A DNA stretch of 55,485 nt from Bacteroidales bacterium (GTDB lineage Bacteria > Bacteroidota > Bacteroidia > Bacteroidales > WCHB1-69). The position numbers and the translations under genes are program-made. The stretch covers positions 1-55,485 of the forward strand of contig JAIRVY010000066.1 in assembly GCA_031253655.1 (NCBI GenBank). The letters run 5' to 3'. This document shows, one piece after another, positions 9,923 through 53,494 of this stretch; within the stretch, counting starts at the first letter, position 1, and each line of letters begins with the position of its first letter. Under the pieces are notes generated by a model. The model made no database searches. It worked only from the letters and a program-made list of their open reading frames with translations, and was not told the DNA's origin.

Positions 9923-9980
9923 AAAAAAAATTGTTAAAAATTTGGTAAATTTAAAATTAGAAACTGCCATATTTCTGCCG

Positions 9981-9988
9981 CAAATATA
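9981..9988 (-). promoter_or_regulatory. Candidate Bacteroidota -7 promoter box (TAnnTTTG) upstream of the metalloprotease gene
   Basis: Minus strand reads TATATTTG, 59 nt upstream of the ATG at 9922. Motif match only. Confidence 0.35.
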
Positions 9989-10334: not shown

Positions 10335-10342
10335 TATTTTTG
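10335..10342 (+). promoter_or_regulatory. Candidate Bacteroidota -7 promoter box (TAnnTTTG) upstream of ORF 10424, possibly driving the giant gene as well
   Basis: Plus strand reads TATTTTTG within 'agtatatttttgcaac', 82 nt upstream of the ATG at 10424. I find no perfect TAnnTTTG between 11009 and 11173. Confidence 0.35.
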
Positions 10343-10423
10343 CAACTTTATAAGCGCTATAGCCATAAGTTTGTTGCAGGATAAGAGTTTCTAAATGTAA
10401 TATCAACCAAAATAGTTTAAAAA

Positions 10424-11008
10424 ATGAATAAATTAGTATCCTTTTTAAAAGTCAAAGCAGAATTAATAAAGTTTTTTGAAGCATTTCTTCGGGTTAGTAA
10501 AAGAGGCATCGCGCTCTACTTTCTTCTTACTATTTTTCTTTTTCTTCCCTCATCTACTCGCGCAAATCAGGCGCCCCCGCCCGAAAACATTATCGTAAAA
10601 TCGCTCTATTCTGCTGTGGAAAACAACCAACCCCTCTACCATCTCATTTTTGGAATCCACCCAAACGTGATGATTGAGGCAGATTCGAAACCATACATCT
10701 TCAAAAATGTTGGAGAGCCGGTGCAGGCTTTCTGCGATATAAACGAAATAAATTCTCTGTATGCCGATACTACTATGTTTCAAGCCGTGCGGATACTACA
10801 TCTCTACAACGTAAAAAACGGAAATATTCCCACACTCGACCTTACTCAAATGACCGCCTTTGAAAACCTGGAATATATTTATATCGCATTTAATTACAAT
10901 GCTTGCGAAGATATGAGCGAAAACTGTCTCCCAAATATTATCAGAAATTTTATCATCCCGAATAATAAAAAGATTACAGTATTGTATAAATTAGACCTTG
11001 CTCACTAA
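10424..11008 (+). CDS. Hypothetical small membrane-anchored or secreted protein (194 aa), orphan
   Basis: ORF from the track. One hydrophobic segment, 'GIALYFLLTIFLFLPSS', follows a 27-aa charged N-terminus. The C-terminal half has weak leucine-rich-repeat-like spacing ('IPTLDLTQMTAFENLEYIYIAF'). I recognise no family. Same strand as the giant gene and 165 nt upstream of it. Confidence 0.5.
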   Translation: MNKLVSFLKVKAELIKFFEAFLRVSKRGIALYFLLTIFLFLPSSTRANQAPPPENIIVKSLYSAVENNQPLYHLIFGIHPNVMIEADSKPYIFKNVGEPVQAFCDINEINSLYADTTMFQAVRILHLYNVKNGNIPTLDLTQMTAFENLEYIYIAFNYNACEDMSENCLPNIIRNFIIPNNKKITVLYKLDLAH

Positions 11009-11173
11009 ATTTTTTTATAGTTAATAGTCAACACTCTTTTTTTTTATATTTTGTTGAAAACGAAAAAATATAAAGTTGAGGTTGAATTTTTTTTACAATA
11101 AAGCACACACAAGAGATAAAATAAAATAACACCAAATTGAAAGAAGAAAATAATTAATTACAAAATAAAAAAA

Positions 11174-11272
11174 ATGAAAGATTTTTACAATTCTTTACGC
11201 AAAACAAAGGCTGCGATTTTTACACTTTTTTTAGCTATCGGATTCAGTATTCTTCCGGTATGCGTTGAAGCG
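11174..11272 (+). other. Sec signal peptide of the giant protein
   Basis: 'MKDFYNSLRKTKAAIFTLFLAIGFSILPVCVEA|QP': basic n-region, hydrophobic core, and an A-x-A-like cleavage site VEA. Confidence 0.75.
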
Positions 11273-14200
11273 CAGCCGATTAACCAGCAACCAAACCCAC
11301 CGAATAGTGTTCAGGTGCCCTTCAAACCCAGGGTGTCGAATACTGTTTCGGCGCAAAACCGTGCGGTTTACAGCATTAAAGGCGATTTTACCGCCATAGG
11401 AAATACCAACCTGATGCTGAACAGGACCGACAATAACCCGAACTTTCCCATTGACAATGCGGATCCGACTAAGCTGAAGTATGTGTGTATAGACTCGCTC
11501 AGACGAGATACCATCTTCAATGCCTCTGCCGCCAAGTTGGATTTGCCCGACGCATGCCACGGCATTGTGTATGCAGGCTTGTACTGGGGCGCACGCCCCT
11601 CGGATGCACCCGGACGAACAGACTCGCTGTGTGCCACCAAATTTGTGGAATGGCTGCACGACCACAAATTCTTCTGCGGAGATAATTTGCCCATCCCGCC
11701 CGGTGCTGACCCAAACCTGTATAAAATAACTTGTGATTATGTGCCGCTTTGCGGACCTCAGGGAAATAGTGGACAAGGGGTAAGATATTCAATTTATCTT
11801 GGTAGTCTCGTACCCCACTTATATGTACAGTTTGTAAGAATTCATTCCAATCAACCCAAAAATGTTCAATACATCTTTCGAATTGGTAACACTATTCATC
11901 AGACTAATGGAGACAATTATCAATACCCGATGTGGATAAATAATGTAGTACTTTACCCGGGATATGATACGTACGATAATATGACTATTGAGAATCATTC
12001 TTACTTAAATCCGGGTGAGCCGTGTCCTTCGGGCGGAGTTCCCACCACAACATTTACTTTACCTGTACCTCTCGTAATTAGGCAAGCCGGTTGTGAATTT
12101 ACCATAAGGTCTATTACCCGCCCATTTGACGATGTAACTCAAAGCATAGTAGAAAGTTGCAGTTGGTTTGATGGCAAATTCTATATCTATGATAATGTTA
12201 CCAAATGTATGCCAAAGGCGCAGGTAAAACTCAAACATGAAAGCGATGCCAACTATACTTTGATTAATGCTGTGCACAACAATTTTAGGCAGAATATTTT
12301 CTATCCGCCCAATACAAATGTTGCTACCATGCACAACCAATACATGTATGCGGCTTATGCCGATGTTACCAATTTTGTTCGTGCTTCGGGCAGAGGCGCG
12401 GGTTGGTACACCGTAGCAGATATTGCCACAAATGAAGGCTTAGGTGGAATAATTGGTTTACATGCCGGATGGGCAATGATTGTGGTGTACGAAAACAGCG
12501 AAATGCCCTGGAAAGATATTATTGTGCAAGACGGCTTTGTGAACTTCCTGTCTCAGAACAGCTCGGAGATTTTGGTGCAAGGATTTAATGCCAAAGAGCG
12601 TGATGATGTAGGAGTTAAGATTTGTGTGGTGGGAGGTGAAGGAGATATGGGTCAGGACGGAGACTATTTTCAGGCGTTTGTGCACAATAATGTGGTTCCT
12701 TCTTACAACAGCTTCCAGTTTATTAACAGAGACGGTCAAATATACACCGAATCTTCAGCCGTACCCTCTAACTTTATGCGTTGCCACATACAAGTTCCCA
12801 TGGCACCGAGTACGGAAATATGCAGAATGCCAAACCTCACCAACAACCCCGGTTTTGATATAGCCCAATTTATGCTTAACAATACCGACAGACGTTTTAT
12901 TGGCTACGGACAAAATTCGGCAAGATTTCGTTTGGGTACCAACTACGACAACTTCAACTACTTCGCTTTTGCCATGTCGGTGGATGCTTATATGCCTAAA
13001 CCGGAAGCCATTAATATAGTGCAAAATGTGGATGTTGCTACCCCGATTTTTGATCCCGAAACAGGTGAACCTTTACTCAGTCCGGGCGATATCATAGATT
13101 ACTCTGTGGATATCAGACTAAGAGGAGACGAACCCGTGGACAGCCTCATCCTCCGAATCCCTATCCCTTATACCACTAAATATCTTTCCAATATGTCGCA
13201 CGCAACATATAATTGGAATTGCGCTCGACTACAAGGACCGGAAAACAGAAATTCGATAATAGGTAATGTGCCGCCTTGTGATAACAATTCGGCAATCCGC
13301 TTCGATGAATCGGTAGCTCCTAACGGGATGATTGAATGGTATGTAGGAGACTTTATCTACTTGTCGGACTCAACGTTTTATACCGATTTAAGCAACCCCA
13401 ATCCTGCCCTTCACGATTCTACCATTACCTATACTTCTACACTCTGGTTTGCGGGATTTGAAATATTGGCAACGCTTTACTTTTCGTTGGAGATTACCGA
13501 TGACTGTAAGGCATTGGCAAGCGGCGATGACCCATGTAAGGCAGGTGTGGTGGTATGGGGTTCTTCTTCGGGAAGAGGACATATTACGCATACTTACTTT
13601 AGCGACTGGCCTATGGTTTATGGTATGCAAGAATCCCCTTGCGAATCGGAATATGAGATTACACCGCCGAGATTTTTGATAGATATTCCTATTGATTGTC
13701 AAGGCGACGAAGTCGAAATTCTTGATATTCAATTGTGTAATAATTTAACAGGAAGCGATATTTACTATTATGTAAGGTCGTTCTTTCCGATAGGAACGCG
13801 ATTTTATGATTTTGATGATATTGACGCTAACTATTTTCCTAGTATAACAGCGTTGGAATATGATGAAAATCATCCATTTATACCCAATAACCCGAGCGAT
13901 CCCAAGCCTTGGAAACTATTTGTAGGACTTCCGGGCGATAATAGCGGAGGAGATTGTATCTTTATGTTCAACATAGTGGAAGCTCATGTGCCGAATTTAG
14001 AATTAACAATAGAGAATCCTTTTATTCTTTGCGAAGATGAAGAAATTAATTTAACCGAATTAATTGATATTACAGACGACTCAGGGGTTAGTTATACTGT
14101 GCAATTTTACAGAAATCCAACAGGAACGGTTCCCTATTTTAGTTACACCCCTCCACCGGTTCCGGATAAGTTTATTACTCCTCTAGTTGACACCACTTAT

Positions 14201-17200
14201 TACGTGAGATTGCGGGTGGACGGTACCATGTGTTATACAAATTTAACCCCTATTGTTATTCAGGTAATACCCAAGATGGATATCAGTGCCGAAGAAATTA
14301 CTATTAACACTTGCAGTGATGTTACATTCAGTGTTGATCCTACAGTCATTTTCGGTAGTAATATTATTCCTGAGGTTACCGTTTACAGCTGGGCTGCTCC
14401 TTCCGCTCCTGACGGCGTTTCCGGTATGGCAAGCGGTAATGGAGAGTCAACCATTACCGGAAAACTTACGAATACTACCAATAATATTCAAAAGGTTACT
14501 TATATAGTAACTCCTTTTGTGCCCAGAGACAACGGCTTGCCCTGCGAAGGAGAAGATTTTGAGGTTGATGTATGGGTATATCCGGTAGTTCCCGTGCCCG
14601 TAACTACCTCTCTGAATGTATGTAGAGGCAGCAGTATCTCTTTAACAGATGCAGTGCAGGGATACAATTCTACGGATTTTAGTATATACAACAGTTCTAC
14701 AAGCGACAGTCCGTTAACAAATCTTACTATTACAGACATTCAATCAAACCATACTTATTGGGTTTCACGAATAGTAACCTATACCGACATGGTTTGTGAA
14801 AGTTTTAGAGAAGAGATTCAAATATTTGTACAAGAGCCGGAAGTGCCCATTGTGGCAACTATTCCGGGTATCTATTGCGAAGGGACGCAGGTTACGCTTA
14901 CAGTTACCGGTCTCACCCACTATAATTTAGCAAACGCCACCATAAACTGGTACAACCAGGCAGGAACGCTTTTAGGCTCCGGAACCTCACTGGCAATTTA
15001 TTTGCCATCCACAAACCCGATGGCAACTCTTACCTATTATGCCGAAGCAGTGTTTTCTCCAAACCTTCCCACCGGACTTGGATGTAATACTGTTGTGAGA
15101 ACACCGGTTACGATTACAGTTAGACCTTATGCTTCTACTTCGCAGGTGGCTTCAACAACCGGCGCAACAATATGTACCGGCAATACGGCAACTATTTCAG
15201 CCACAGCAGCTATAACCGGCGCTAATGCCGTAACTAATCCGGTAATCCGGTGGTACGACAGTCCAACGTCCACAACTGTGCTTCCCAGCACACAAGTGGG
15301 CGCTACGAGCAGTTTTACTACTCCAACACTTTACAATCCGCCTTCGGGAACTTACACCTATTATGTTTCGGTATCCGGAGATAATTTTTGTGAAAACCTT
15401 ACGGCAAATCGTGTTCCGGTAACAGTAACCGTACGCGAGCAGCCCATACTAACTCTTAAAACTCAAGATGAAATTTATTCAAAATGTTATAATCAATCTT
15501 TTGTTATTGTTCCCACACTAACGAATAATACTTACAATCCTGCCATCAATCAGTGGTATATAAGGGAACAGGGTAGTGGCACTTGGCTACTAGCCGCTAC
15601 AAGTATTTACTCTACGTGGTTCTCTCCGGGACCGAGTGGAAACTCTCTGGTTAATACTATTTTTACCCCTACCAACAGCTTGATAAATAACTTTGAATTA
15701 CGATTAGTAGTTAATACAGAGTATTGCGGGCAGGTGGAGGATTTCATATCCTTGACCATTCTTCCTAATCCTACTAATTATACTCTCCAATTGGTTGAAC
15801 AACCCTTATTAGCCCAGGATATTTGCGAAGATACCGTTTATACGGTTAAAATTAAATCTACCGACATCGGTTTAATTAACAATATTACAGTTAGTTTTTT
15901 AGATGACGACAATACCTTGCTTGGAGTAAAAGATGCCTATTACAGTACAGATATCAATGCACCGGATGGAAATTGGTTACAATTGACTGAAATATGGCGA
16001 AACGACCCCACCGAGAACTCGTCTACAGGATGGGCATTCCCTCCCAATTACGAATTGGAAATAAGTGATTCGGTGTATGTTAAAATTTTTGTATATATTG
16101 GATGCGATTTTTATTCCGGCAGCCCTTATGCCATTCGAGTAAACGCAAAAGATTATTGTGGTTACGATATTACACCGGCTCGAACTGTACCCACCGATAT
16201 TTTCAGAGCAAAATTCAGTGAAGATGGCTTTGGTTTTACATACGATGTGTTGTGGAGATTTGACCCTCCTGCCTTATACAGTTCACCGCCTACACAATAC
16301 TGGTTCACAGATGCAACCCCGCAAATACCGTTAGCACAAAACTATACCGGAGATATTATTACATGGAGAATTGCCTTTGTTCCCCATTCAGACGATATTG
16401 TCAGCAACCCATACACCTCCGATTCGGACAGGGAATCCTATTGGTTTTTGATTCCAAATGGATTTGAAATACTCGGCTATCAAAATATTAAAAATGCTCC
16501 TACCGACTGGGAAGATTTTGATATTTTGGGAGATATTTTCTATTTGCCCGCAGGAATTGAATTCGGACATCCGATACCTTCCGGATTATCAGACGGTGAC
16601 AGTATCATTTTTGAATTTACTTTATCGACTTATAATGCCGAATGTAAACTATTTGAAACATACGCTTCTACTTGGTTCACGCTGGAAGATATTTACTGTG
16701 GCGGTGAACTTTGTGAAGGTATTAATGATAAAACCGGAGAATCTTATCCGAAAATTGAAGTAACCGGTTCTGCTTTCCATCTGTTAGACCCGCAGGTTAC
16801 TACTGCGGCTCAAAGAATTATTACTCAAAATAGTTGGGGTGGTAAAGTGGATTTCGAGGTAGATAAGCCATTCCAGACAGGCGGCAGAATATATGCCGAT
16901 TTCTATATTGATAGCGATAAAAATAATAGATTGGATATTCTTACAGACACTAAAATTGCCTCCCAGATTATTCCCACGGGCAATTGGGCATCAGGTACTT
17001 TTACCCTCGATTTCTCTAACGTTCCTTTTGGTAAAGACGACCAACTTTTTGTACGCCTGTATAGCGACTCCATTATTTGTAACGAAGTAGTTTTTCCAAT
17101 TGCTACATTATGGGGCAAAGATACCATTTGCGAAGGCGACACGCTGTTGCTTACTGCTCCCGAAAGAGGAACTTTGTATAGTTTTATTCCTTCCGATCCC

Positions 17201-20200
17201 GTTAGGATGCTTCGCCAACCTGCTCCGGGAGATTTTGATTACACCCAGAAACCCTGGATATACAACGTATATTGCCCGGAAAAAGGTAATTATTATGTTG
17301 ACTTTACCTATTCTATAAACCTTGAGAGTACCACAACACAGCTTATCGCTGCCCGTTACCCGATTACAGTACTTGAGATACCAAAACTGGTACTTACCGG
17401 ACCTGATTCAACGCGAATTTGCCAAGATGCCTGTGTGGACTTGATGCCATTTATTGCAGAAACTACCGGATTACCCGGTATCATCATTTCTGTTTTCGAC
17501 AACGGAACAAAGGTAGGAGATGATAGCACAGACGGAACTATTATTGTTTGCCCCGATAAAACTACAATCTATACTTTTAAGGCAAAAGTAGGTACGGATG
17601 GCTGCGACGAAGAAGTTGAAATCCCATTCAAAGTGTATGTAGATGAGATGGTAAATATTTGGTCTATCGGAGCGCTTACCTATCCGGGGTGCAAAGATAC
17701 CGAGGGTTCGGTATGGTTCTCCGTGTGGGATATCAATAACTATAGTAATGAATACGAATACAGTATTAATAATATTGCGGGACCTTTTTTTCCTTTGGAT
17801 GTAGATCCCCTCTCCGGTATTGCCATTGTGGACGATTTGGCGTCGGGAACTTACATATTTTACGTGCAAAACACAACAGCATTTGCCTGTTCTCCCTCGC
17901 AAAGTTTGCCTATAACATTGCCTCCAATAAATTCCGATATTACAGTGTCCGCCGAAATATTAACCCATCCCTCCGATTGTGATGCCACAGACGGAGTGGT
18001 GCAGATAGTAGTGAGCGGAGGTACTTCCCCATACAAATACAGAATTGGAATAGAGGGAAGTTGGGAAGAGTTGCCTTTAGACGGATTGTTAAATGATTTT
18101 AGTTCAGGAAAATACTACATTTATATTATGGATGACAACGAGTGTGTACATCCGGTGGAAGAGATTTTTATGAAACCCATTTCCGGAATGACATTGAGTT
18201 ATGTAATTGACTCTCATTCCGATTGTGAAGAATATGGACAGGCTACCATTACCGTTAACGGCGGTACGCCACCTTTCCAATACCGATTAAACAGCCAAGG
18301 ATGGAAGCCCATAACGGGTAATACCGTTACTGTGGATGCTTACACCGGCTATAATTCAGTTACTGTAGTTGATTCAGAAGATTGTACGCAAGATGTGGAG
18401 TTTACAATTGATTTAGAAAATGCTGAATTTGAGATTCTCCCATTTGCGAAAACTGATGCCACCTGTTTCAACGATATGGGAGGTACAATTACGGTTACCG
18501 TTAAAAGCATAAGCGCTTTACTTCAAAATGTTACAATCAGTTATGGAGTTGGGACTCCGGTTACTTTACCCCTTCCCGCTAATGGTACTATTACTCATAC
18601 TATTACAGGATTGGGTGTGGGCACCTATGAAATAGAGATTAGAAATGATAACGATTGCTACATTAGGTATCCGGGAGTTACTATTGAATTAGATAAATTA
18701 GCGTTTATCAATATTGGTTCAATTAGCGTAGTTACGCAACCCACCTGCACCGACAGCGGCGGCAGTATTCACTTAGTAGTATTTGGCGGCATAGGCGAGA
18801 CGCCTGAATATGAATACAATTTCGATAATGGATATACTTTCTACCCCCTTCCTCCCGACGGAATTATTTCCGGATTAAAAGTGGGATTGCACTACTTATA
18901 TATAAGAGACAAAAATGCGCCCTCATGTGCCATCTCTATCGGTGGTCCCATACGAATTACCCCTAACTCCAGCAATCTTTTTGTTGAGTTGTTAGGAGTT
19001 GCCGACGCCACCGATTGTGAAACCCCCAACGGAACAATCTTCTTTGCGGCTTCCGGCGGAGAACCCCCTTACAAATATTTCCTTGACGGTGTTGAACTTA
19101 CGACTCCTAAGCCAACCGGTGGCGTAATTTCGGGAGTTGCTTCAGGCTACCACGAACTTTATATTTCCGATGCTACCGGATGCAAAGCATTCGCAGAGAA
19201 AATATTTATTAACGCTACAAACTTTGAAATAGAATGGGAACTGATAAAAAATGCCGACTGTTTTGAAGATGGCCAGGTTGAGATTACGATTTCAGGCGGT
19301 CAGCCTAACTATTCTTATCAGGTATCGCTTCACGATAACTTTGTTTCTTTTGCAGGAAATACCGCTACCATTGACTTTCATGCAGGGCATTATTATATTG
19401 TAGTAAAAGATGCTAACGGTTGTGTAAAACGAGAAGAATTTCAAATAGGATTATCAAACGATGAAATTGTATTACAAATAGTTGCGGTAACACATGCCGA
19501 TTGTGAAGGCACCGATGGAGGTACCATTACTTTCGATTTACAAGGCAGCACAGGCGCCAATTTTGAATTTAGAATATTTGAAGAATGGGAACCCGTTACC
19601 CAACTACCATTCACTATTACCGGTTTGGCAGAGGGTATATATGCCTTTTATATCAGAGATGACAATGAATGTGCCCTCATATTTACGGAAGTTCCGGTTA
19701 CCTTGGAGAGAGTTCCCAACATAACGATAAGTTCTATTTCAGTGGTTTCGCAGCCCGATTGCGGCACTAATACCGGTTCCATTCAATTAGTAGTTACAGG
19801 CGGAAGCGGAAATTATCAATATCAAATAAACGGAGCTGGAAGTTTTTTCAATCTACCCTCATCGGGTATTATCAATAGTTTCCCGGCCGGAGTTTACTAT
19901 TTTCTTGTTCGGGAAGTTGGAAACACTGCTTGTCCTTATGCCATCACCGATAAAATTACTTTATATCCTACAAACGGCAGTATTGTGGTAAGTTCTAAAA
20001 TAGTTAACGCTTCTTCCTGCACATCTTCCAATGGTGGGGTGCAGTTGTATATTAGCGGCGGAACGCCATTTTTAGATGGTATGGGCTATTATTACAATTA
20101 TATTATTGAAAACCAAACAACACTGAATCCTACTTATGATGGAAGAATTACATCCTTGGCGCCCGGCGACTATGTGATACACATTTTTGACGCTACCGGT

Positions 20201-23200
20201 TGTAAAGTGAGTACGCTGGTTACTATTGGTGTGAACCCCGATAACAATATCGGGCTTGATTTCACCTCTATCGTGGCAGCAGGATGTAACACTCCCGGCT
20301 CATTTACTTTGATAGCAAGCAATGGTGTACCTGTATATCAATACAGTATCAACAGAGGAGGATATATTCCTTTCATGGGTAGTACAGTAATAGTTACAAT
20401 TGGCGCAGGCACCCATTTTGTAGAATTGATAGACGGGAACGGCTGCTATACTTCAGACTACGTAACCGTTAACCCAAATACAGGTTTTACGGCTTTTGTG
20501 AGCTCTGTTGTGGATGCACATTGTGATGGGACAAACGGGGGAGAAGTAGTAATTACTTTTACAGGCTCTCCTACAAAATATATTGTTAACAACATTGAAT
20601 ATCAACTTTCAGGTTTAACAGGAGACAGTTTCACCATTCCGGACTTAGCTCAGGGAACCTATACCATAGATATTGTATATGGAAGCAATTGTGTTTATAC
20701 TATTGATAATGTGAAGATAAACCACGATTCAAACTCACCCGTAAAGATAGGCTCGGTATATGTGGTTCGACAACCGGAGTGTCAGGGAAGTGGAGGAAGA
20801 GTGCAGGTAGTAGTTACCGGTGGAAGTGGAGAGTATTACTACAACATTGAAAACGTTTGGAGAGATTTTACTCTGCCCGACGACGGCATTATCTTTCTTG
20901 GAGTAGGAAACTATCATATTTATATTTGGGATAAAAATAATAGAAATTGCCCTGTTGTAGTTAGCAATCCGGTTATTCTTACCCCGAATACCAGCGACCT
21001 TAAAGTGTTGGCAACCACTGCGGATGCAACAGGGTGTTATCCGGCAACAGGTTCCATAATTGCAGAAACCTGGGGTGGCTCAGGCACTATCACTTACAGT
21101 ATCAACGGAGAGGATAAAGGTGTATTTCCGCCAACAGGTAATTTGGGAAGTAACTTCCGTTCGGGAGTATATTCTATTATGGTGTATGATGAAGAGGGTT
21201 GCAGCGCAGGTACGGAAGTATTTGTACTTGCGAATCCTTTCAATATTAACTTCCGCTTAGAAGCGTTACAAGAAGCAAATTGCAATGGAAAGGGACTTTT
21301 GGCTATTGAAATTATCAGAGACCCCATAGATGAAACTAATTGGCGTTATCAGTTAGATGGCGAAAACTGGAAAATCTTCCCGTCAAACTATGTGACAGAA
21401 CCGGTTACAGCCGGATGGCATACCGTTATTGCTATGAATGATGCCGGATGTTATTCACAAAATGTTATTGAAATTCTAAACACTTCAGGAATAAGATTAT
21501 CAATACCTGTAACAACAGATGCTTTTTGTCAGGGTATAGCTGTTCCTCCCTCATCGGGAGGCACTATTACATTTGATATTGATGGCGGAACTGCCCCTTT
21601 TACCATCACAAATAATAGTAATATCCTTGAAACAAATGTTCCGGAGGGCTCTTATACCATTTACGGATTGCCGGTGGGTGTTTATGAAATCACTATTACC
21701 GATGCCAACGGTTGTATAGCAACGCTCGAAAAAATATCTATCAAGCGTTCCGACGACTACTACTTTGCAGTAAACGACTACAACTATACCTATTCCGGCG
21801 TGTTGGTAGGCGGTAATATTTTTGATAATGACATTACGCTAAATAACGCAACCATTTTATTTGACCTCGATTATTATGCAAGTACTGTAGTAACATTAAA
21901 CGGTACTTTTACTTTTTCTGTAAATGGGGATTATACGTATTTACCCCATTCCGGTTTTTGCGGTGTAGATTCAATACGTTACTACGCTTTGAATGATTGT
22001 GGATTGAAAAGCAACGCCTGGTTATACATTACCGTATTCGACCAGAATGTTCCTAATTCGCCGTTGCCTCCAATTGCAGTTGCCGACTTCTATTCTACTA
22101 CCCGCGGAATTTGTATTAACCAAATGGATGTGAGGGCAAACGATGCTGAACGAAACGGCAGCACATTAACATTGCCTCAGGTTGTCTCCGGAAAAGAAGT
22201 ACAACATGGTATATTGACATCAAATGGTGATGGCACTTTTGAGTATTGTCCCCATCCGAACTTCTTCGGAGAAGATGGTTTCGACTACGTGGTTTGCAGC
22301 AATGCTGCCGGTACATACTTCAATTATTGCACCGGTGTAGAGCAACCCCTTTGCGATACCACACACGTTACTATTCTGGTACTCAGAAATGACTTTACCG
22401 TATTTGCATTCCCCGATTACTATACTACCGACCAGGAAACCATGCTGTTTGGCGGAAATATTTTACACAACGACATCTACCCGGCCGGTTCTACTCCGCA
22501 AATAACCTTGGTTCCGGGTTCAGGAACTAGCAACGGTTTATTAAATCTGAAGGAAGATGGCACCTTTGAATATCTGCCTAACCCCGGATTCTTTGGTACT
22601 GATAAGTTTGAGTATGAGTTGTGTGTAGAGATAAACAACGAAATAAAATGCGACATTACAACAGTTTATATATTGGTAGTTAAAAAAGATTGTCCAATTG
22701 TGACTGCACCCAACGTGAGCAACCCGCAGACATTCTGTTTGCCGGCGTATGTTAAAGATTTGATAGCCTACGGACAAGAGGTGAAATGGTACTTATCTGC
22801 AGAACCGGAAGAGGAGGAAGAACCATTAGATCCGGAAGAGACTTTATTAGTTGCCGGACAAGTCTATTATGCTTCTCAAACGGTGAATGGATGTGAAAGC
22901 AAAAAACGCTCGTTTGTGAAAGTATTGGAATCTGAAGATTATATGATTGCTGCGCCCAATATTTTAACACCGCAATTCTTCTGTGAGGATGCAACCCTTG
23001 ACGATTTAGTTACCGACGGGTTGCCGGTGAAGTGGTACAACGCTACCGGTACGGAATTGCAGGGAACTACAAATCTTGTGAATGGTGCTACGTATTATGC
23101 AGCCCGTTTGGCAGGAGATTGCGAAAGCGCTAAACGCACTCCGGTACAAGTTATAGAAACCAACACTTCTATTTCCTACCCTGTTGCTCCTCAAAGATTC

Positions 23201-41200: not shown

Positions 41201-44200
41201 GCAAATCATATCTTAGAAAATGAAAAACGCTATTATGCAGCACTCCATATTTATGGAAATTGTATAAGCACAGTAAGAAAAGAGATACTTGTTTACATCA
41301 ATCCTACAGATTATAAATATCCAGAAATTGACCAAATGTTCTGCGATGAAGAGCGGTTTGTGAGCGACTTGGTTGCTACCGGATACGGATTAGAATGGTA
41401 TCTTGTTCCTAATAATTTTGGAACAGCATCACTTGCTTTAGATGTGAAATTGATACACGGAACTACCTATTACGGTGCCAACACAAATGGAAACTGTGCA
41501 TTTACTACTGTGGCAGTGAATGTATCAATTTATAATGGTGTACCTCCGCCAACGATTGCTTCTCCACAAGAATTCTGTATTCTATCGAATAACCACAGTT
41601 TAACATTGGAAGATATTCAGGTAGTTGCGGGCGACAACGTGAAGTGGTACACTTCAATAGATGCTACAGCTCCTCTTGCACCAAATACTATTTTAGAAAA
41701 CAACACACTCTATTGGGCTTCTCAAACTATTGGAACAAGTTGCGAAAGCGAGCGTACTTATGTAAAAATAATCCTCATTCTAAACAAGGTGATTCAACCT
41801 CCGGTAATTGATGATATTTATCTCTGTGAAGATATAAAAGGCGAAATTTCTGTAGGTGATTTACCCACAAACGGAATGAATATCAACTGGTATTATTCTC
41901 AATCTACGGACAATCCGGCATTACCGGACGACAAGATAGATGATGATATTACTCTATATGCTGCGTTAGTGGAAGGCGAGTGTCAAAGCGCAGGTTTAAC
42001 CAAAGTTGAAGTAATTTTTGAAACTACAATTTCTACGAAACCTGAAATTAGAGATACACTTTACTTCTGCGAAGGCGCGATGATTAGCACTATAATTGTT
42101 GACCACAACTTTATTAAGTTGTTCGCAACCGAAACTTCCACTACACCGCTACCGCTGAATACTATATTGGTTAATGATAGGGTGTACTGGGCTGCGTTTG
42201 TGGTTGGTGAAGATTGTATCAGTACTGAAAGAGTACCTGTAAGAATCATTATTGAACCCACAGGCCACTACTACGATGACCTCGTAGAAAACTTCTGCGC
42301 CGGAACTACAATTAGCGACATACATGTAACCGGATATGGCGTAAGGTGGTATCTTGATGCAGATTTGACCAGACCGGTGACAGATGATTACGGACTTTAC
42401 AAGTTAGAACACGATTCTACCTATTATGCTGCCAATACGCATGGCGAGTGTTCTATCATTATCTATGCTGTTAAAGTAACTATTTTCAGCGAAGTACAAC
42501 CACCAACAGTGAAAACACCTACGGAATTGTGCGTAGATGATTTAGAAGCGCCCCACGGACTCACTTTAGCCGATATTTGGGTACAAGGCAACAATATTCA
42601 GTGGTATGCTTCCGAAGAAGGAAATGATGCACTTGACTTAAATGAACCGTTAGTGGATGGTGAAATATATTGGGTAACTCAAACAATTATTGCCTGCGAA
42701 AGCAAACGTTCTTATGTAAAAATAAAATTGTTCGAAAGTACCGATATACCCGCTCCGGAAATCCCAACTGAACAAGAGTTCTGCGATGGTGGTATTTATA
42801 CTATTGCTAACCTGACCGTTCCAACAGGAATGAGAATTGAATGGCGTGATGAAAGTGGTGTTATCTATGCAGACAACACCCCACTTGTTGATGGAGAAAC
42901 TTATTATGCCTACCAAATTGTGGGAGAATGTGAAAGCACAGAACCTACATCGGTTACAGTTACCTTTGTGCCGACAATTACCAATACACTAAATATTGAC
43001 ACCGTACAGGTATTCTGCAAAGGCGCAATGATAAGCAGTATAGTAGTGCCATCGAACAATATTGTTTGGTATGCTGACCAAACCGGTGGATTACCATTGC
43101 CCGATAATACGATTTTGATTGACGGAAAAAAATACTACGCCGAGCTAAAAGTGGGTGGTAGCTGCGTAAGCAACGAAAGAAAAGCAGTTACCATCAAGAT
43201 TAACCCTGAAGATTACCAGTGGTTAGAAGAGATTCAATCCTTCTGCTGGGATGCCTTAGTGGGAGACCTCACAGTGATGGGATGGGGCGTGAAATGGTAT
43301 GAAGATGAAGAATTAACGGTAGGTCCATTAGAATTAACTATCAAGTTGGCACACGATAAAGTATATTATGCAGGAAATACCAACGGCGATTGTAAAATTA
43401 TTGCCGCTGCTGTTACTGCGAAAATATTTACAAATATTATGCCACCAACAGTTCAAACTCCGGTTGAATTGTGTACTACCGGAGGATACCTGTATTCATC
43501 CGATTTAATGTACAACGTGAACGGTATAAACCTCAAATGGTATAAAGATGCATACGGCACTATTCCGTTGGGCAACGACCATTTAGAAGACGGTGAAACC
43601 TACTGGGTATCTCAAACCTACGGCAATAATTGCGAAAGCGGTTTATCTCCAATTATGGTTATCATTAAAGAAAATGTAAATTATCCTGCTCCCGACATTT
43701 CAAGCCCGCAGTATTTCTGCGAAGATGGAGAATATACCTTAGAGGAGATGACCGTGCCGTCGGGTATGAATATTATTTGGTACGATGCTTTTGACAACAT
43801 CTTGCCAGAGACTACAATCTTAGAAGATGGTCAAACTTACTATGCAAGTAGAATTGTGGGCTCTTGCGAAAGCACGCAACGCACTGCTGTGAAAGTAGAA
43901 TTCCAACCTGTAATTGATGTTACACCTCATTTTGATGTGGATGAACTCTTCTTCTGCTACGGCGCTATGATTAGCGATATTGTAACTCCGGTAAATAACG
44001 TGGTGTGGTACTATAATCAGTTTGATAAAGTACCATTGGCAGGCGATCACCTGCTTGAAACACACAAATACTGGGCGACAATCCTTATAGGCGAAGATTG
44101 CGAAAGCACAAGTCGTGTTCCTATGGATATAGTAATTGATCCGGTTGATGATAGCTATCCAACATACGAACAAGAGTTCTGCTCCGGTGCAACTGTTAGC

Positions 44201-47200
44201 CACATCAGTGTTCAAGCGTATGGCGTTCAGTGGTATTTAGACAAAGACCTCATTATTCCTGTACCATTAACCAATGATTTGATTCACAATGCTACCTATT
44301 ATGCAGTGAATGTTAACGGTGACTGTGAAATAATCGGCGTAGCAGTCAAGGTTTATGTATATGATAATGTACTCCCCCCAACTACCCCAACAGTAATTGA
44401 ATTGTGTGTAAATGACATAGAAAACCATACGCTAACTTTGACAAGTTTGCTTAATTATGTTCACGGTACAAATATCAAATGGTATGATTCTGAGGAAGGT
44501 GGCAATGAGTTGCCGTTGAATACTCCTGTTAAAGATGGAACTATTTACTGGCTATCTCAAACATACGGAGCAGAATGTGAAAGTTTTGAACGTTCCTACA
44601 TCAAAGTTCTTCTAAATGAAAATATGAATATTCCTAAACCGGAAATTATCTCCCCAATTGAACTTTGTGCTACATTAAAATATAGTATCAAATTAAGCGA
44701 CTTGCCTGTAAATGGACAGGAATTGCTATGGTTTTTAGATGCTGCCGGAGATATCCCGTTGCTGCCATCGATGATATTAACCAACGACAATAACACATTC
44801 TATGCCAAATTGAAAGTAGGAACGTGCCAAAGCACAGAACTTACTCAAGTGTTAATCAACTTTGTACCGGTAAGTCATTACAAACCGATTGTAGTTACTC
44901 CGCAAAGTTTCTGCCACGGAGCAATGTTGAGCGATATTGTGCTAAAAGATAATGTGATTTGGTATGCTACCCAAACTTCCACAACACCGTTGCCAAGCAA
45001 CACACTGTTAAGTTCGGATACTTATTGGGCAGCCTTACATCTCGGAGGTACTTGCATAAGTACGGAAAGAGTGCCGGTAATAATCAAAATTAATCCTACT
45101 GATTTAACTGTTGATATCAGAGAACAACAGTTCTGCCTCGACGCACTTGTAAGCGACCTTATTACTTCCGGCTATGCCGTTAAATGGTATAAAGAAGTTG
45201 ATTTAATAAATGAAGTGGGTTTGGATGTAAAGTTGAAACACGATTCGGTTTACTATGCTGCCAGCACGAATGGTGAAGATTGCAAACTATTGGTAGATGC
45301 AATCAGAGCAAAGATTTACGACCACGTGCCTCCTCCAACAGTAGAAACACCTTACGAATTGTGCGAACAACAAGGCAATTTAACATTAGCTGATATTAAA
45401 GTACAAGGACAAAATATTAAGTGGTATGATGCCGAAGTGGATGGAAATCTACTACCAATAAATACCTTAGTTGAAGATGGAAAAATCTACTGGGTATCGC
45501 AAACCGTAGGCGTAGGCTGCGAAGGTGGTCGAACGTATGTGAAAGTGAAAATCACAAATATCAACAATGTTCCTGCTCCGGAATTGGAGGATATTGAACT
45601 ATGTGAAAACTTGAAAGGAATCACATTAGGTGAGGTACCTGTGAACGGACTCAATATCGTATGGTATGAAAATGTCGCCGGTACGATTCCGCTATTGGCA
45701 AGCAAAGTAATTAGCACTGACGTTACCTACTATGCGGCATTGAAAGTAGGGGAGTGTGAAAGTACCGAACTTGTTCCTGTGAACATCACTTTTGAGAGTG
45801 AAATTACCAAAACACCTCAAATTGATGACCAAATCTTCTGCTATGGCGCAATGATAAGTGATATTATAGCCCCAACCAACGTGGCGTGGTATTTAGATGA
45901 ATTTGTCGGAGCAAAATTGGAAAGCCACACTATCTTAGAATCTACTACTTATTGGGTTGCTTACGCTTATAGCGCTAATTGCGAAAACAATAATCGCGTT
46001 CCTGTAGAAATTACTGTTGGCATATCCAATGATAATTATTTGTATGAAGAACAAGAGTTCTGCTATGGAGCAGTGGTGGGTGATATAAAAGTGCACGGGT
46101 GGGGTATCAAGTGGTACACCAACCCCGAATTAACAGGCAACCCGTTAGCATTAACCGACCTGTTAATCCACAAAAATACTTACTATGCTGTAAATTCAAA
46201 TGGTGATTGTCAACTGATTCTTGCTGAAATTAAAGTATTTGTATATGAAGACGTGTTACCACCAACAGTTACCAGTCCCTACGAGTTATGCTCATTGGGC
46301 GGCGAACTAACACTGGGACACATCTATGTGCAAGGAACCAATATTCAGTGGTATGCAAGCCAATTTGGAGAAGTTCCGTTGCCGCTCTCTACAGTTATTG
46401 CAGATGGAGTTACCTATTGGGTATCTCAAACTCAGGGCAAAGCCTGCGAAGGTGGACGTTCACCGGTAAAAGTGAAGATTATAGAAAATATGATTCTTCC
46501 CGCGCCGAATGTACCAAATCCACAGCAGTTCTGTAATAACAAAACCTATCACTTATCCGATATTACATTACCTTTGGGAATGGAAATAAAGTGGTATAAC
46601 GCTGCAGGTGCAGAACTGCCGCTGAGTACGGAGCTAACAAACAACACTATCTATTATGCGTCTCAAGTAAACGGCGAATGCGAAAGTGCAGAAAGAACGC
46701 CAGTGCTCATACAATTAGTAACTGTGGTTACCAATAATCCTGATGTAATATCACCGCAGAATTTCTGCAACGGCGCGTTAATAAGTGACATTAAGGTAGG
46801 CACAAACAACATTCTCTGGTACCTCGAACCATCAGGTGGACAACCACTTGACCAGGATACACAGTTAAAAACCGGCATCTATTATGCATCGCTTATAACT
46901 GCCGAAGAGTGCGCAAGCACAGCACGCAAATCTATTCATATCTATATTAACCCCGAAATCCAACTCTTCGATACTACTCATCAGGTGTTCTGCTACGGAG
47001 CTTATGTCAACGACCTGAAAGCAACCGGTTATAATGTGAACTGGTACACAGACAGGAATTTGACCGAAGAATCGAAAGTGAGTCTTGGTGACCTCATACA
47101 ACACGGAACCATTTACTATGCCGCCAGCACAAATGGCGATTGCAGAGTTATTGAAGTAGCCGTGAGGGTAAGCGTGTATGAACATGTTTCTCCGCCAAAT

Positions 47201-50200
47201 GTAAGCAGCCCGTATGAATTATGCTCGATGGGAGGTCAATTTATTCTGGCAGATATATTTGTACAAGGCGAAAATATCACATGGTACTTAACCGAAGACT
47301 CAGAAGAACCACTACCGCTCAACACACAAATTTTCGATGGAGACGTGTTCTGGGTATCTCAAATGTTTGCTACCTGCGAAGGAGGACGTTCTTATGTGAA
47401 AGTAATAATCAAAAATAACCTGATTATTCCTGCTCCCGAAGTAATAACTCTACAATATTTCTGCGAAACAGGTACATACCACATCCACGATCTGATTGTG
47501 CCAATCGGAAAGAACATTGTGTGGTATAACGAAACAGGAGACTTATTGTCTGCTGATACAGAATTAGCAGAAGGCGTAACTTATTACGCTGCCGAAAGGG
47601 TAGGAGAGTGCGAAAGCGCAGAACGTACCCCCGTTACCGTAACATTCGACGAACTTCTCAAGATTGTATTGACAATTCCCGACCAGGGATTCTGCGACGG
47701 CGCAGTAATTGGTGATATTATCGTTCCTTACGAAAACATCAAGTGGTATTACAACTTTGAAGATATTACTCCTTTGAGCAAAATTGAAAGATTGTTGTCC
47801 CATACTTTCTTTGCAGAAATAGATTGTGATGACAACTGTGCAGTTACAGAACGTGTTCCGGTGGTAATTACTATCGGACAACCGAGTGTGGTTGCTACTG
47901 ATGCCGAACAAAACTTCTGTGAAGGTCAGTTTCTTATTGAAGACCTGAAAGTATTTGGCTTCGGTGTTACCTGGTATCCAACACCAAATTCAAACGTACC
48001 GTTGGATATCAAGACGCAGTTAGTACACGGAAATACCTACTATGCCGTAAATAAAAACGGGAATTGCGAAAGCGAAGAGCGCGTTGCAGTAACGGTATTT
48101 ATTTACGAACATATTGCTCCGCCAACTGTAGAATCACCGTTGAAATACTGTGTATCTACTAATCCCGGACTAACAGTAGAAGACTTGAAAGTATTATCAG
48201 GTGTGAATATCAGGTGGTATGATCAGGAGTTTGAAGGCAACGAACTGCCTCTCAACCACAAATTGATTGACGGTGGTATCTATTGGGCATCTCAAACGAT
48301 GGCGTACTGTGAAGGTCCCCGCTCATTTGTGAAAGTTGAGTTTGATCCCGATATGGTAGTGCCCGCGCCAAATATTCCTTCTCCACAACTATTCTGCAAC
48401 TTGGGAGGAACAACCTTAGGCGACCTTGTGAATATGAATCAAGACCTGTTGTGGTATTTCAATGAAAACGACATCATCCCAATGTCGCCCTCAATACCTG
48501 TAATCAACGGGCACATTTACTATGTATCCCAAAAAGTAGGCGAGTGCGAAAGTACTGAGCGTACCCCCGTGTTAGCTATATTCAGCAACGTTATTAGCAT
48601 TACTGTTGAAATACCGCCACAGGCTTTCTGCTACGGCGCATTGTTGAGCGACATCGTTACTCCGTACCAAAACATTGTTTGGTACGAAACAATGACCTCT
48701 ACACAGCCATTGCCGATAAACACGCAGCTCAAAACCAAGATCTATTACGCTGCAATGAAAGTAGGCGAGTGCATCAGCACCATTAGAATACCTGTACCGG
48801 TTACAATCGGAATACCTTCCAACGTGATTACTGATGAATATCAAAACTTCTGTGGAAGCGCAATTATTGCCGACCTGTTTGCCATAGGATTTGGTGTGAA
48901 ATGGTACGAGTCTCTTGAGGCTACCGAACAATTGCCATTAGACCACCCGTTAGTTGACGGTGGTACGTACTGGGCAGTGCAAAGCAACGAAGATTGCGAA
49001 AGCAACCGCGTGGCAGTTCTTGTAACCATCTATTCTGTACCCGAACCACCCGAAATGTTGGATGATGTTGCGGCTGCTAAGTGCGAAGGTGAGACCATTA
49101 CAGTTGAGTATCTGCTCGGTTTGATTAATAATGAAGGATACGATTATGTAATCTATGTGGATGAGGCGTGCAAAATGAAACTCACATGGGATATTATTAC
49201 GGATCTATCGGTAGCATCTTCCCATACTTTCTATGTAATGGCTTACCATCAGGGAACTAACTGCTCGCACAGCGTAGAAGACGCCTTGAAGATAGTGGTA
49301 GTAGTGAATCCGCGTCCAGAACCACCGGTTATTATTACAGGTTCTCTGCTTAGCGTTTGCGATGGCGAAGTGATTACCCAAGAATGGTTAGAAACTTTCA
49401 TTTCTTATAACAATGCAGAAGTAATCGTTGAGTTCTATCTCGATCCGGCTTGCACGATTCCGTTTGCTAATATCACTACAAATTATGCCATTGCAACTTA
49501 TCATCAAATCTATGTAATTGCAAGAAACATAACTACCGGCTGCGCTACCAATGCAGAAGACGCATTAGTAATGACCGTGATTGTAAATCCACGTCCAAAT
49601 GCTCCTATTGAAATACCCTACGCAAACGCAAGCGTTTGCTCCGGCGAATGGATTACCGAAGCCAAACTATACAGCTTAATCTATTATGATCCTTTACAAG
49701 TTAATGTAGAGTTTTATTTGGATCCGGAGTGCACCATTCCTTTCGAACCAATCCTTACCGACTATGCCGAGGCAATATCGCACAAAGTGTATGTAATTGC
49801 CAGAAGTATGGCTACCGGCTGTGTTACCTTTGCAAAAGATGCCTTAGAATTGACCATCACTGTGAATCCGCTACCGGAAGCACCCGAAATTGAGGATAAT
49901 GCCATCCCTGCAGTTTGCGATGGCGATATCATTACGATAGGAACCTTGCTTACATTCATCAAATACAACCCCGCTTTAGTAACCGTAGAGTTTTATTTAG
50001 ATAAAAATCTGAATATTCCGTTTACTAATATCCAAACCAACTATGCTGTGGCTACCTACCACACTATCTATGTAGTTGCAAAAGACAAAATTACGGGCTG
50101 TGTAACCGCTACTGAAGATGCATTGGAATTGATAGTGCAGGTTGACCCGCTACCGGTAATGGAAATGCACAACCTCATCTATTGCGATGGAGAAGATGTG

Positions 50201-53200
50201 CCGGCATATTATTTTGCTAAAGTAGCAGGTAATGAAGAGGTACATACATTTGTTTGGGAAAGAGTTTACGGATACGACTTCGGACTGAACGAAATATCAG
50301 GTGTTGATTCGATACCTGCATTTAAAGCTGAAAACTACGGATTCCAGTATGTGAGCGCATTGTATAAAGTTACCCCGATGAACGAGCATGGATGTATGGG
50401 AACACCGGCATACTTCCTGATAACAGTGAATCCGAGACCTATTACCAGCCCAATACCTCCAATGGTTTACTGCAACGGTACCACGGTCCCGAAATTTGAT
50501 TTCGCTGCTAATATGCCCGATGTATTCTTCGAATGGGAATTTGTGAGCGGTGATAACATCTTCGGTGTAACTGCCGGTCAGAACTACTTGCCGGGATTCC
50601 TTGCTGTAAACACTACCAATGTGCCATTGATAGGAACATACAAGGTGCTGGCAAGCTATTCATTCGACAACTTAACCTGTTCTGAATATGAATGGAACGA
50701 GTTCTCGATAGTAATACTACCTACTCCGGAAATCCCAACAGTATCTGAGCCGGTGGATCAAAACATTTGCTCAGGAACGGCCTTCCAAGATATTATCTTT
50801 AGTGGTAATGTGGAAGATGTATTGTACAAATGGGAAAGAATTGAAGGATTGATTTCAGCACTACCCGCAGTTGGCGAAGGAAATATTACAGGATTTGTGT
50901 TAAATAACCCCGACATCTTCCCGATGTATGCAGTTTACAAAGTGCATGCTGAGTTGAATTACGAGGATTATCCAGGATACGCCTGTACAGGACCCGCAAC
51001 ACAATTCAGTATTACTGTTCAACCCGATATTTCTGCTCAAGATGTTCCCAACTTTGTATATTGCAATGGCGAGACCACGCCGCCATACACATTTACGGGC
51101 ATCAATCCGCTGGCTACATACACTTGGGAATATGTTTCGGGTGCTCAGTTTGGACTACCGAACAGCGGCGTGAATATCTTCCCATCATTCAATGCAACCA
51201 ATGCTACGAATGCACCACTAACGGGCAGCTTCCGAGTGAGAGCAACCTACAACGGATGCTCCGGAAGCCAGTGGATGAACTTTACCGTAACGGTATTGCC
51301 AACGCCTACAGTTACAACTGCACCAAATCAGCAAACTGTTTGCCACGGCGGAAATTCGCAACAAGTTGTGTTTTCAGGCAATGTGGCAACTGCTACCTAC
51401 CAATGGACAAGAATTTCAGGTACCGACCCGCAATTCCCAATCAACGGAACCGGAAACTTTGCAAGTATCACAAATCTGCAAAATAACGGCTCATCACCAA
51501 TTGTTGTAGAGTATGAAGTTACACCGATGTTGAACTATCCTCAGTATCCTGCCTATACATGCCCCGGAACCCCCGTTCAGTTCTCCATCACTGTGATGCC
51601 GAAACCGCACATCAATACGATACCCAACTTTGTTTTTTGTAACGGTGAAAAGACGCCTGCATTCGAATTTGGAAATACTTCGGGAGTTACCTATTCTTGG
51701 TCTCTTACCAATGGTGTAAATGTTGGACTTGCCGCAAACGGCACGGGAAATCTCCCAAGCTTTACCGCGGTGAATACATCCAATAGCCAAGCATTGACTG
51801 CTATTTACGAAGTTACGGCATCCTTCAGCATCAACGGACAAACATGTACCAATTCGGTTACTTTCACGATTAAAGTGAACCCGACCCCGTCGGTGGCTTT
51901 GAATATAGGGCAGTATGAGTACTGTCACGGCGAAGAAACTCCTGCTATTGATTTAGTTGCAGCGTTTGCAAGTTTGAATAATATTTTAGGAACAACTTAC
52001 GAATGGATGTTTGTAACCGGTAGTAATGTAGGATTAACACAATTGTCGGGTACCGACATCATCCCGTCTTTCACAGCTACAAACAGTAGCGACCAGCAAA
52101 TTACTGCAACTTTCAAAGTGATTGCTAAGTTTGAGAGTTGTTCCGATGGTACGGAAAGATTCTTTATGATTGTAGTGAACCCGAAACCTGTTATTACGAG
52201 CGCAACCCACGCCGGTATGATATGTTCCGGAAGTATGTTCAACTACACTATTACATCTAAACCCGTAAGTGAATTATCTTGGACGAGAGTGCCGCATCCG
52301 GATATTAGCCCACAAGGTGGTATCTTGACACAAGGTGCATTTATCAGCGAAAGACTCTATAATACAAGTGAATCGGACGTGTTGGTTACTTACATAATCA
52401 GTGCTAAAACCGGAAATTGTGAATACGACAATATCGGTGCGATTACGCTGATTGTAGCGCCGGAATTGGCACTTACCATCGAGCCTGTTACTGTTGCTTG
52501 TAAAGCAGAGCAAACGATTGCCCTCGAATACGAAGTAAATGTACCCGGAACAGAATACATCCTAGTATTTACACCAGACGGAACAGCAAACGGATGGATA
52601 AGCGTAAACGACTTCATCTCGCTACCCGAATCGCCAATGCTGATTAACATTCCGACAGGAGCTAAACTAGGAAACTATCCCGCTACAATAACTATACGTT
52701 TTGGAGACTGTGTTAAAGTGTACAATATCGTGATAGCATTGAAAGATGTGCCGGTGGCTACCAACAAGTCGGAAGAAGAGATATCTCTTTGTGCCGGCGA
52801 ACCGTTGTATCTATTCGTAGAAACGATAGGTAATGATAATTATCAATGGTTTTTTGATGGAGAATTGATACCGGGTGCTACCGGAAACGTTTACCAAACT
52901 CTCTTCGAAGATGCAATGGCAGGTATTTATACTATTGAAATTTCAAACGAGTGTGGAATGATAACCTATTCATTCAAAGTACATTTGAATCCGCTTATCA
53001 TTAAGAGAAAGTGGGACGATGTATTGTATGTTGATAACTTCGGTGATAAGTATGTAAGATACCAGTGGTATAAGAACGGACAACCCATTGCGAAAGACGG
53101 AGATGCTCAGTATTATACCGAGTACGACAACAACGGTTGTTTCACTCCGCACGCTGAGTACAATGTAAAAGCATACAAGGCAGACGGTACTTTCGACGAA

Positions 53201-53494: not shown

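Follow-up and report, generated by a model that had tools for sequence, protein, structure and literature searches.

A predicted 1.56-MDa type IX secretion system cargo from a Bacteroidales bacterium and its Bacteroidota-wide head-and-partner family

Giant repetitive adhesins are already a well-known kind of protein, and the protein that we describe here is extreme in size. It is the predicted product of a single 14,106-codon open reading frame (ORF), the giant gene, on contig JAIRVY010000066.1 of a Bacteroidales bacterium (NCBI GenBank assembly GCA_031253655.1); the whole stretch of DNA analysed, 55,485 nucleotides, is called the window. Among the closest described systems is SprB of Flavobacterium johnsoniae, a type IX secretion system (T9SS) cargo of 6,497 aa (PMC9870892) and 669 kDa that forms a filament of ~150 nm. 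The giant protein is 2.2 times longer, in agreement with the more than twofold difference claimed in an earlier note on this DNA. Both are very large, acidic, repetitive Bacteroidota proteins with Sec and T9SS signals, SprB repeats (PF13573) and Ig-like modules. They differ in that SprB has a type B sorting domain and the giant protein a type A domain, in that the giant gene has no adjacent PorP/SprF gene, and in that the giant protein is dominated by Ig_7 super-repeats rather than by SprB repeats. A second comparison is with the type A cargo of Porphyromonas gingivalis (gingipains and others, anchored by PorU/PorV/PorQ/PorZ to anionic lipopolysaccharide, A-LPS), which has the same C-terminal class, TIGR04183. 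Those proteins, however, are enzymes and adhesins of 30-200 kDa in a dense surface layer, whereas the giant protein is predicted to be a fibre of 1.56 MDa.

Giant adhesins of the repeats-in-toxin (RTX) class, exported by the type I secretion system (T1SS), include MpIBP of Marinomonas (~1.5 MDa, a mass similar to that of the giant protein), LapA and SiiE. In these adhesins, as in the design of the giant protein, ~100 tandem Ig-like modules hold ligand-binding domains far from the cell. Their polarity is opposite, with the hold at the N terminus and the ligand-binding domains near the C terminus, and the repeats of MpIBP are nearly identical, whereas the modules of the giant protein are 27-60% identical. 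Among the whole-protein Pfam matches we found no HemolysinCabind or other RTX family, and membership of the RTX/T1SS adhesins was rejected for lack of RTX repeats. Titin resembles the giant protein in combining super-repeats with low identity between adjacent domains (in the giant protein, 41% at a spacing of four modules versus 27.5% between neighbours); the giant protein differs in being bacterial and, as predicted, extracellular, and in having a four-module unit of ~78-aa Ig_7 domains with a cysteine pair. Proteins of at least 10,000 aa have been documented in many phyla, and the sections of West-Roberts et al. cited here do not name Bacteroidota among the phyla rich in such giants (bioRxiv 10.1101/2023.11.21.568195). 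The giant protein also falls in the 'large protein' class (>10,000 aa) that those sections describe for Omnitrophota and other phyla, and for which adhesion to surfaces or cells is likewise proposed. As described there, the Omnitrophota-type giants contain SecA-like domains and a large number of transmembrane segments, and their genes lie near those of the type II secretion system, whereas the giant protein has one signal peptide, Ig-like modules and a T9SS sorting domain. We rejected an Omnitrophota-type assignment because the whole-protein Pfam scan found no SecA-like domain and the signal peptide contains the sole hydrophobic segment.

The giant gene is a real, intact, single gene. Our own translation agrees with the ORF listing and with the stop-free frame that the earlier note had reported: it begins with ATG, its sole stop is the terminal one and it contains zero N bases. 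An in-frame TGA lies upstream at 11138, so that the ORF cannot start further 5'. At a GC content of 42%, chance cannot account for 14,106 consecutive codons without a stop, and in the other frames of this DNA the ORFs of 150 aa or more, when relisted, measured just 181, 152, 163 and 207 aa, the last being the maximum given before. The computed mass of the product is 1,557,027 Da (1,557 kDa), close to the ~1.5 MDa estimated previously, and its computed pI is 4.26. Modules of known type tile most of the ORF past the N-terminal head; the head is supported as coding by its homologs and two spacer regions by their mutual paralogy, and a collinear ortholog spans aa 1-7669, 9886-12996 and 11621-14106. 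Parts of the ~350 aa that precede the sorting domain have weak matches only.

A gene of this modularity raises the question of repeat collapse during assembly, and this worry is largely removed by divergence at the DNA level. Tandem Repeats Finder detected zero DNA tandem repeats in the giant ORF, and the top direct DNA repeats were 30-84 nt long with 60-90% identity. At the protein level, maximum identities between modules were 40-60%. Because collapse or chimerism requires near-identical repeats, and none are present, we find no sign of either; the same divergence explains how the gene stays intact against recombination.

The export pathway is strongly implied by signals at the two ends of the protein. 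At the N terminus, a predicted Sec signal peptide can be read from the sequence as MKDFYNSLRKTK-AAIFTLFLAIGFSILPVCV-EA followed by QP, with a positive n-region, a hydrophobic core of 19-20 residues and a cleavage site after VEA. A hydrophobicity scan of all 14,106 aa found one hydrophobic segment only, at aa 11-33, and homologs of the head carry a signal peptide at the matching position. We rejected a lipoprotein reading, given that the context of Cys29 (LPVC) is not a lipobox and that this cysteine is absent in homologs. At the C terminus, TIGR04183 matched aa 14028-14105 over its full profile (1-72/72) with 47.2 bits (cutoff 23), and PF18962 (Por_Secre_tail) matched with 28.3 bits (cutoff 27). 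The type B sorting domain (TIGR04131 or PF13585, CHU_C) had no match in the last 506 aa or elsewhere in the protein. Thus both termini can be assigned as the earlier note had proposed, to a canonical Sec signal and a type A T9SS sorting domain, and the families that it expected from a Pfam/TIGRFAM scan (Por_Secre_tail/TIGR04183, SprB repeat, PKD-like and cadherin-like) were all recovered. That the organism uses a T9SS is further indicated by the neighbouring gene for an M6 metalloprotease, which has a type A sorting domain of its own.

The dominant module of the giant protein is Ig_7 (PF19081), grouped as 20 four-module super-repeats, a grouping that was not noticed before. Within the array of 80 Ig_7 modules, identity was 41% between modules four positions apart and ~27.5% between neighbours and at any other spacing; because of this peak at lag four, we divide the array into 20 super-repeats. 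The four-module periodicity was still visible to at least lag 24, and DNA motifs recur every 930-957 nt, in step with the super-repeat unit of ~315 aa or ~945 nt. Two cysteine columns are invariant, in 80/80 modules of the long array and in 93/93 Ig_7 modules overall. This invariance suggests one disulfide per Ig_7 module, which would form in the periplasm before export by the T9SS.

We mapped the remaining modules with profiles built on the giant sequence itself, alongside Pfam (Table 1). The Pfam families found in the protein were Ig_7, SprB repeat, Big_9/Cadherin_4/5 and PKD_5, all of them of a kind commonly seen in surface proteins of Bacteroidota. The self-built profiles counted 93 Ig_7, 25 SprB-type, 6 Big_9/cadherin-like and 9 PKD_5-like modules and 4 of a 96-aa family. 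The total is about 137-143, plus any inside the spacers, in keeping with the ~140 modules from at least six families estimated earlier. When modules were scanned singly, PF19081 was matched by 63/93 Ig_7 modules, which matched no other family, PF13573 by 14/25 SprB-type modules and PKD_5 by 4/13 tail modules; in two large chunks of the protein, the SprB repeat scored 75 and 58 bits. Three regions had been described as non-repetitive. The head is indeed unique, but the other two, aa 1319-2152 and aa 4528-5388, align collinearly as a pair of paralogs, with 24% identity and E = 1e-29. These two stalk regions of ~830-860 aa (nucleotides 15128-17629 and 24755-27337) matched no family, and their paralogy, together with the modules that follow them, indicates a large internal duplication of a block comprising spacer, SprB-type modules, three Big_9 modules and Ig_7 modules. 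The two copies of the block differ in their numbers of SprB-type modules (16 versus 8) and Ig_7 modules (9 versus 80), with three Big_9 modules in each.

To place the giant protein among its relatives, one Ig_7 super-repeat was scored with HMMER against 1.84 billion representative proteins. This search returned 2,209 relatives; in the top 150 of these, the maximum length was 7,571 aa. Two adjacent genes on one 492,815-bp contig of another Bacteroidales metagenome-assembled genome (MAG) encode proteins that together parallel the giant protein. The first, P0127 (7,540 aa; MDR2083734.1, 'tandem-95 repeat protein'), is collinear with giant aa 1-7669 at 41.5% identity; the second, P0126 (4,330 aa; MDR2083733.1, 'T9SS type A sorting domain-containing protein'), has 45% identity to giant aa 9886-12996 and a sorting domain at its end. 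Since the two genes are in the same frame and one TAA apart, they constitute an ortholog of ~11,880 codons with one stop, and this single in-frame TAA (L162:5971-5973; JGI 3300042648, contig Ga0466709_014514) accounts for the annotation of two proteins. The TAA falls inside an Ig_7 module that reads CESER-stop-YVKV where giant modules have CESERSYVKV, and it may reflect a sequencing error, a genuine nonsense mutation or readthrough. Overall identity between the ortholog and the giant protein is 41-48% and the module order is the same. The ortholog has 66 Ig_7 modules versus 93 and 24 SprB-type modules versus 25, with equal numbers of Big_9 and 96-aa tail modules. A beta-barrel/OmpA gene lies 98 nt after the ortholog and its product is 52.5% identical to that of the gene 85 nt after the giant gene. 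Pieces of the ortholog are already in GenBank under generic names, and further N- and C-terminal fragments come from assemblies of OttesenSCG-928 Bacteroidales and Odoribacter, in which the gene takes up the whole contig or runs past its end.

The head defines a family of T9SS cargo across the Bacteroidota, first recognized here. Its conserved core comprises aa ~46-150 and ~345-900 (~650 aa), separated by a variable insert (aa 150-345). We detected 177 homologs, with ~30% identity and E values down to 3e-73, in which the head is always N-terminal, directly after the signal peptide. A pattern scan confirmed by tblastn located at least 566 head loci in GTDB species representatives, spanning Bacteroidales, Flavobacteriales, Cytophagales and Sphingobacteriales. 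When the head was used as a single protein query, no close relative turned up in the GTDB species genomes. Complete members of the family are 1,075-3,824 aa long and several of >4,000 aa overrun the fetched sequence; the overall range is 1.1 to >7.5 thousand residues. Head-bearing proteins of the Bacteroidota have a type A or a type B sorting domain at the C terminus, although this feature is not universal. One relative, P0258 (6,499 aa), is collinear with giant aa 1-4296 at 33% identity and carries at its C terminus a Fib_succ_major domain (PF09603, 83 bits) in place of a T9SS sorting domain; it was identical in at least six samples, on contigs of up to 508 kb. The head had no match in Pfam, even at E <= 5, or in NCBIfam, and none among PDB sequences with either the single sequence or a 72-sequence profile. 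An AlphaFold2 model of the head was all-beta (predicted local distance difference test score, pLDDT, 72; predicted template modelling score 0.69). Foldseek searches with this model returned just generic multi-beta-sandwich matches (complement C3/C5, PrgB, integrin legs and Sgo0707) with template modelling scores of ~0.1, which permit no functional conclusion.

The gene directly upstream of the giant gene encodes a small secreted protein that, together with a head-domain cargo, forms a conserved gene pair, also new here. Among the head loci of the set L081-L161, 72 had enough upstream sequence for this comparison, and in 59 of the 72, as well as in L081 and L082, a homolog of the small partner ends 9-115 bp before the head gene. 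Partner homology was established by jackhmmer (E 1e-16 to 1e-54), and the pairing also holds in reverse: downstream of partner homologs, the adjacent gene again encodes a large T9SS protein. A word-indexed search with the partner had found only itself, to which a profile search added four proteins. The partner had no Pfam or NCBIfam match. Its mature part of ~130 aa includes a conserved C-terminal motif, (I/V)xVLYx(L/V), and an AlphaFold2 model from five sequences was unusable (pLDDT 49).

Family members with a type B (CHU_C) domain are found at loci L092, L097, L105, L114, L125, L129, L134, L137, L141, L146 and L158. At type B loci, the small partner and the cargo are followed by PorP/SprF and by a PorE-like protein with TPR, PD40, CarboxypepD_reg and OmpA domains; the sorting domain of these relatives matched with 89 bits and PorP/SprF (PF11751) with 246-310 bits. 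The gene downstream of the giant gene is of another kind, with matches to OmpA and, weakly, OMP_b-brl_2, and no match to PorP_SprF (PF11751); a look-up of its exact sequence returned no record. We therefore rejected the OmpA-type neighbour as a family-wide feature, given that type B members carry PorP/SprF and the PorE-like OmpA protein and that the beta-barrel/OmpA gene is shared by the true ortholog only. Taken together, the giant protein is the extreme-length member of a Bacteroidota-wide T9SS cargo family defined by the head and the small upstream partner, with an OmpA-type gene downstream in this lineage.

We propose, with a probability of about 0.62, that the giant product is a C-terminally anchored cell-surface fibre, most likely an adhesin, with the head at its distal end. 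The precursor would cross the inner membrane by Sec, guided by its signal peptide, and ~145 small beta-sandwich modules would take up their fold in the periplasm, where a single disulfide probably staples each Ig_7 module. Passage through the T9SS translocon would then be directed by the type A C-terminal domain. On the P. gingivalis paradigm, the PorU sortase would remove this domain and join the new C terminus to the anionic lipopolysaccharide, as described for type A cargo (PMC9143113). Such C-terminal anchoring would place the head at the distal tip, where its ~910 aa may serve as a ligand-binding tip held 0.3-0.6 µm from the cell, with the module array as stalk or extender. The upper part of this range is given by ~145 modules of 3.5-4 nm each (0.5-0.6 µm), and scaling from the SprB filament, ~150 nm for ~6,500 aa (PMC13104615), gives ~0.33 µm; the ~0.5 µm of the earlier note falls inside the range but towards its upper end. 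Length probably changes as four-module Ig_7 super-repeats are gained or lost, and low identity between neighbouring modules and at the DNA level would make for a stable gene and should reduce misfolding between adjacent modules. Anchoring, adhesion, fibre length and the roles of the partner and of the OmpA-type protein are what we infer from this arrangement.

Several points tell against an anchored adhesin or limit the case for it. No T9SS core genes (PorK/L/M/N, Sov/SprA, PorV or PorU) lie within the 55-kb window. Some Bacteroidota release type A cargo instead of anchoring it. The in-frame stop of the ortholog could mean that such genes are decaying or are made as two products. Finally, the head has no recognizable ligand-binding fold, and its designation as an adhesin tip is drawn from architecture.

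These points bear in part on another explanation, in which the giant product is released, or is processed into several pieces once exported, to serve as a biofilm or matrix scaffold or as a carrier of the two internal spacer domains. Release of type A cargo by some species fits this explanation, as do the possibility that the two paralogous non-Ig stalk regions of 830-860 aa are functional units, the two products that a true stop in the ortholog would yield, and the T9SS-secreted M6 protease encoded next door. We consider it unlikely nonetheless: there is no protease-site or processing evidence, the second half of the ortholog lacks a signal peptide of its own and would not be exportable after a true stop, and the conservation of the OmpA-type neighbour points to a product associated with the cell envelope.

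A gliding adhesin of the SprB type, loaded on a gliding track and propelled over the cell surface, is a poorer fit and in our view improbable. The 25 SprB-type modules point in this direction (14 match PF13573 when scanned alone), and in many Flavobacteriia and Cytophagia relatives with the head a type B domain is combined with downstream genes for PorP/SprF and a PorE-like OmpA protein, an order like that of SprB. The giant protein itself, however, has a type A sorting domain, and the gene downstream of it is a generic beta-barrel/OmpA gene. The genomes nearest to the window by valyl-tRNA synthetase (ValRS) are gut and rumen Bacteroidales MAGs, and gut and rumen Bacteroidales are largely non-gliding. 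Moreover, SprB depends on SprF and is independent of PorU/PorV (PMC9143113). Of the roles raised in the earlier note (adhesin, motility-track cargo, or sheath or biofilm fibre), the first is thus favoured as part of an anchored fibre and the second weakened by the type A domain and the missing PorP/SprF gene. A very improbable explanation is that the ORF arose from repeats collapsed, expanded or made chimeric during assembly, or that it is a pseudogene in decay but still open; the high modularity of the gene and the breaks at contig ends in most draft-genome relatives, which would favour it, are set against the lack of tandem or long near-identical DNA repeats, the retention of both cysteines in all 93 Ig_7 modules, an independent ortholog with the same architecture and neighbour gene, and the fact that a decaying gene would not remain open over 14,106 codons.

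The features of the locus are listed in Table 1. The M6 metalloprotease gene is divergent from the pair of small secreted-protein gene and giant gene. The Bacteroidetes -7 motif TAnnTTTG is matched at 10335 and 10366, ahead of the small ORF, and nowhere in the 165 nt that separate this ORF from the giant gene, a placement that is compatible with co-transcription of the two and lends it weak support. A hairpin 14 nt past the giant stop and 44 nt ahead of the OmpA-type gene is possibly a terminator, an attenuator or an mRNA-stabilizing element. At the other end of the window, a NuoN/Mrp-antiporter-like ORF (1-855, plus strand) enters from the edge and converges with the ValRS gene (809-3439, minus strand), the 3' ends overlapping by 47 nt. 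This ValRS places the organism among uncultured Bacteroidales; its best match was 72% identical, from gut, rumen and faecal Bacteroidales MAGs, and the genes that neighbour it in the window were absent from all 80 ValRS loci compared.

Table 1. Coordinates of features in the window (nucleotide positions; aa positions refer to the giant protein)
Feature	Position	Strand	Description
M6 (InhA-like) metalloprotease	5660-10273	-	1,537 aa; Flg_new_2 and cadherin-like domains, own type A T9SS sorting domain
Small secreted-protein gene	10424-11008	+	194 aa; signal peptide; directly upstream of giant gene
Giant ORF	11174-53494	+	14,106 codons plus stop; ATG start; ORF listing and own translation
Predicted Sec-type signal peptide	11174-11272	+	aa 1-33; predicted cleavage between VEA and QP; read from sequence
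N-terminal head	11273-14005	+	aa 34-944; all-beta (predicted)
Four divergent Ig_7-like modules and one PKD_5-like module	14006-15436	+	aa 945-1421
Spacer copy 1	15437-17626	+	aa 1422-2151; without known family; paralog of spacer copy 2
16 SprB-type modules	17627-21718	+	aa 2152-3515; ~80 aa each
3 Big_9/cadherin-like modules	21764-22627	+	aa 3531-3818
9 Ig_7 modules	22706-24754	+	aa 3845-4527
Spacer copy 2	24755-27334	+	aa 4528-5387; collinear paralog of copy 1
8 SprB-type modules	27335-29356	+	aa 5388-6061
3 Big_9/cadherin-like modules	29402-30217	+	aa 6077-6348
80 consecutive Ig_7 modules	30287-49033	+	aa 6372-12620; 20 four-module super-repeats
4 modules of 96-aa Ig-like family	49028-50149	+	aa 12619-12992
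7 PKD_5-like modules	50180-52195	+	aa 13003-13674; ~96 aa each
Pre-sorting-domain region	52196-53254	+	aa 13675-14027; weak Ig-like matches and one SprB-type module (aa 13886-13963)
Type A T9SS C-terminal sorting domain	53255-53491	+	aa 14028-14106; TIGR04183, PF18962
Perfect 11-bp GC-rich hairpin, 7-nt loop	53508-53536	+	CCGGCAGGGAG-TAAACAA-CTCCCTGCCGG; without T-run
Outer-membrane beta-barrel and OmpA-domain protein gene	53580-55193	+	537 aa; 85 nt downstream of giant gene

Beyond the anchored fibre itself, we tentatively raise a broader possibility, which we hold to be doubtful at present: the locus may represent an uncharacterized, phylum-wide, three-part surface-fibre system. Its parts would be a small secreted partner, a cargo with the new beta-rich head of ~650 aa, and an anchor linked to the outer membrane and peptidoglycan (OmpA-type here, PorP/SprF and PorE-like in type B relatives). 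The head and partner would then form a new ligand-recognition unit, on stalks of ~0.4 to ~13 thousand residues tuned by disulfide-stapled Ig_7 super-repeats, and the giant protein would perhaps be the longest intact T9SS substrate yet seen.

The chief interest of the giant protein lies in the size record that it would set for T9SS cargo, in the four-module super-repeat with its invariant cysteines, and in the cassette of head and partner in hundreds of species. If expressed, it would set a new upper bound for the T9SS translocon and for PorU attachment, ~1.5 MDa compared with 669 kDa for SprB, and the T9SS would have to handle probably more than 100 folded, disulfide-containing modules. Because such genes are fragmented or split by stops in draft genomes, their sizes are systematically underestimated. 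The same head on stalks that differ ~30-fold in length offers a natural series for studying the reach of a surface adhesin of gut Bacteroidales. As the head and its upstream partner are unannotated in hundreds of Bacteroidota species, one characterized member would annotate many genes.

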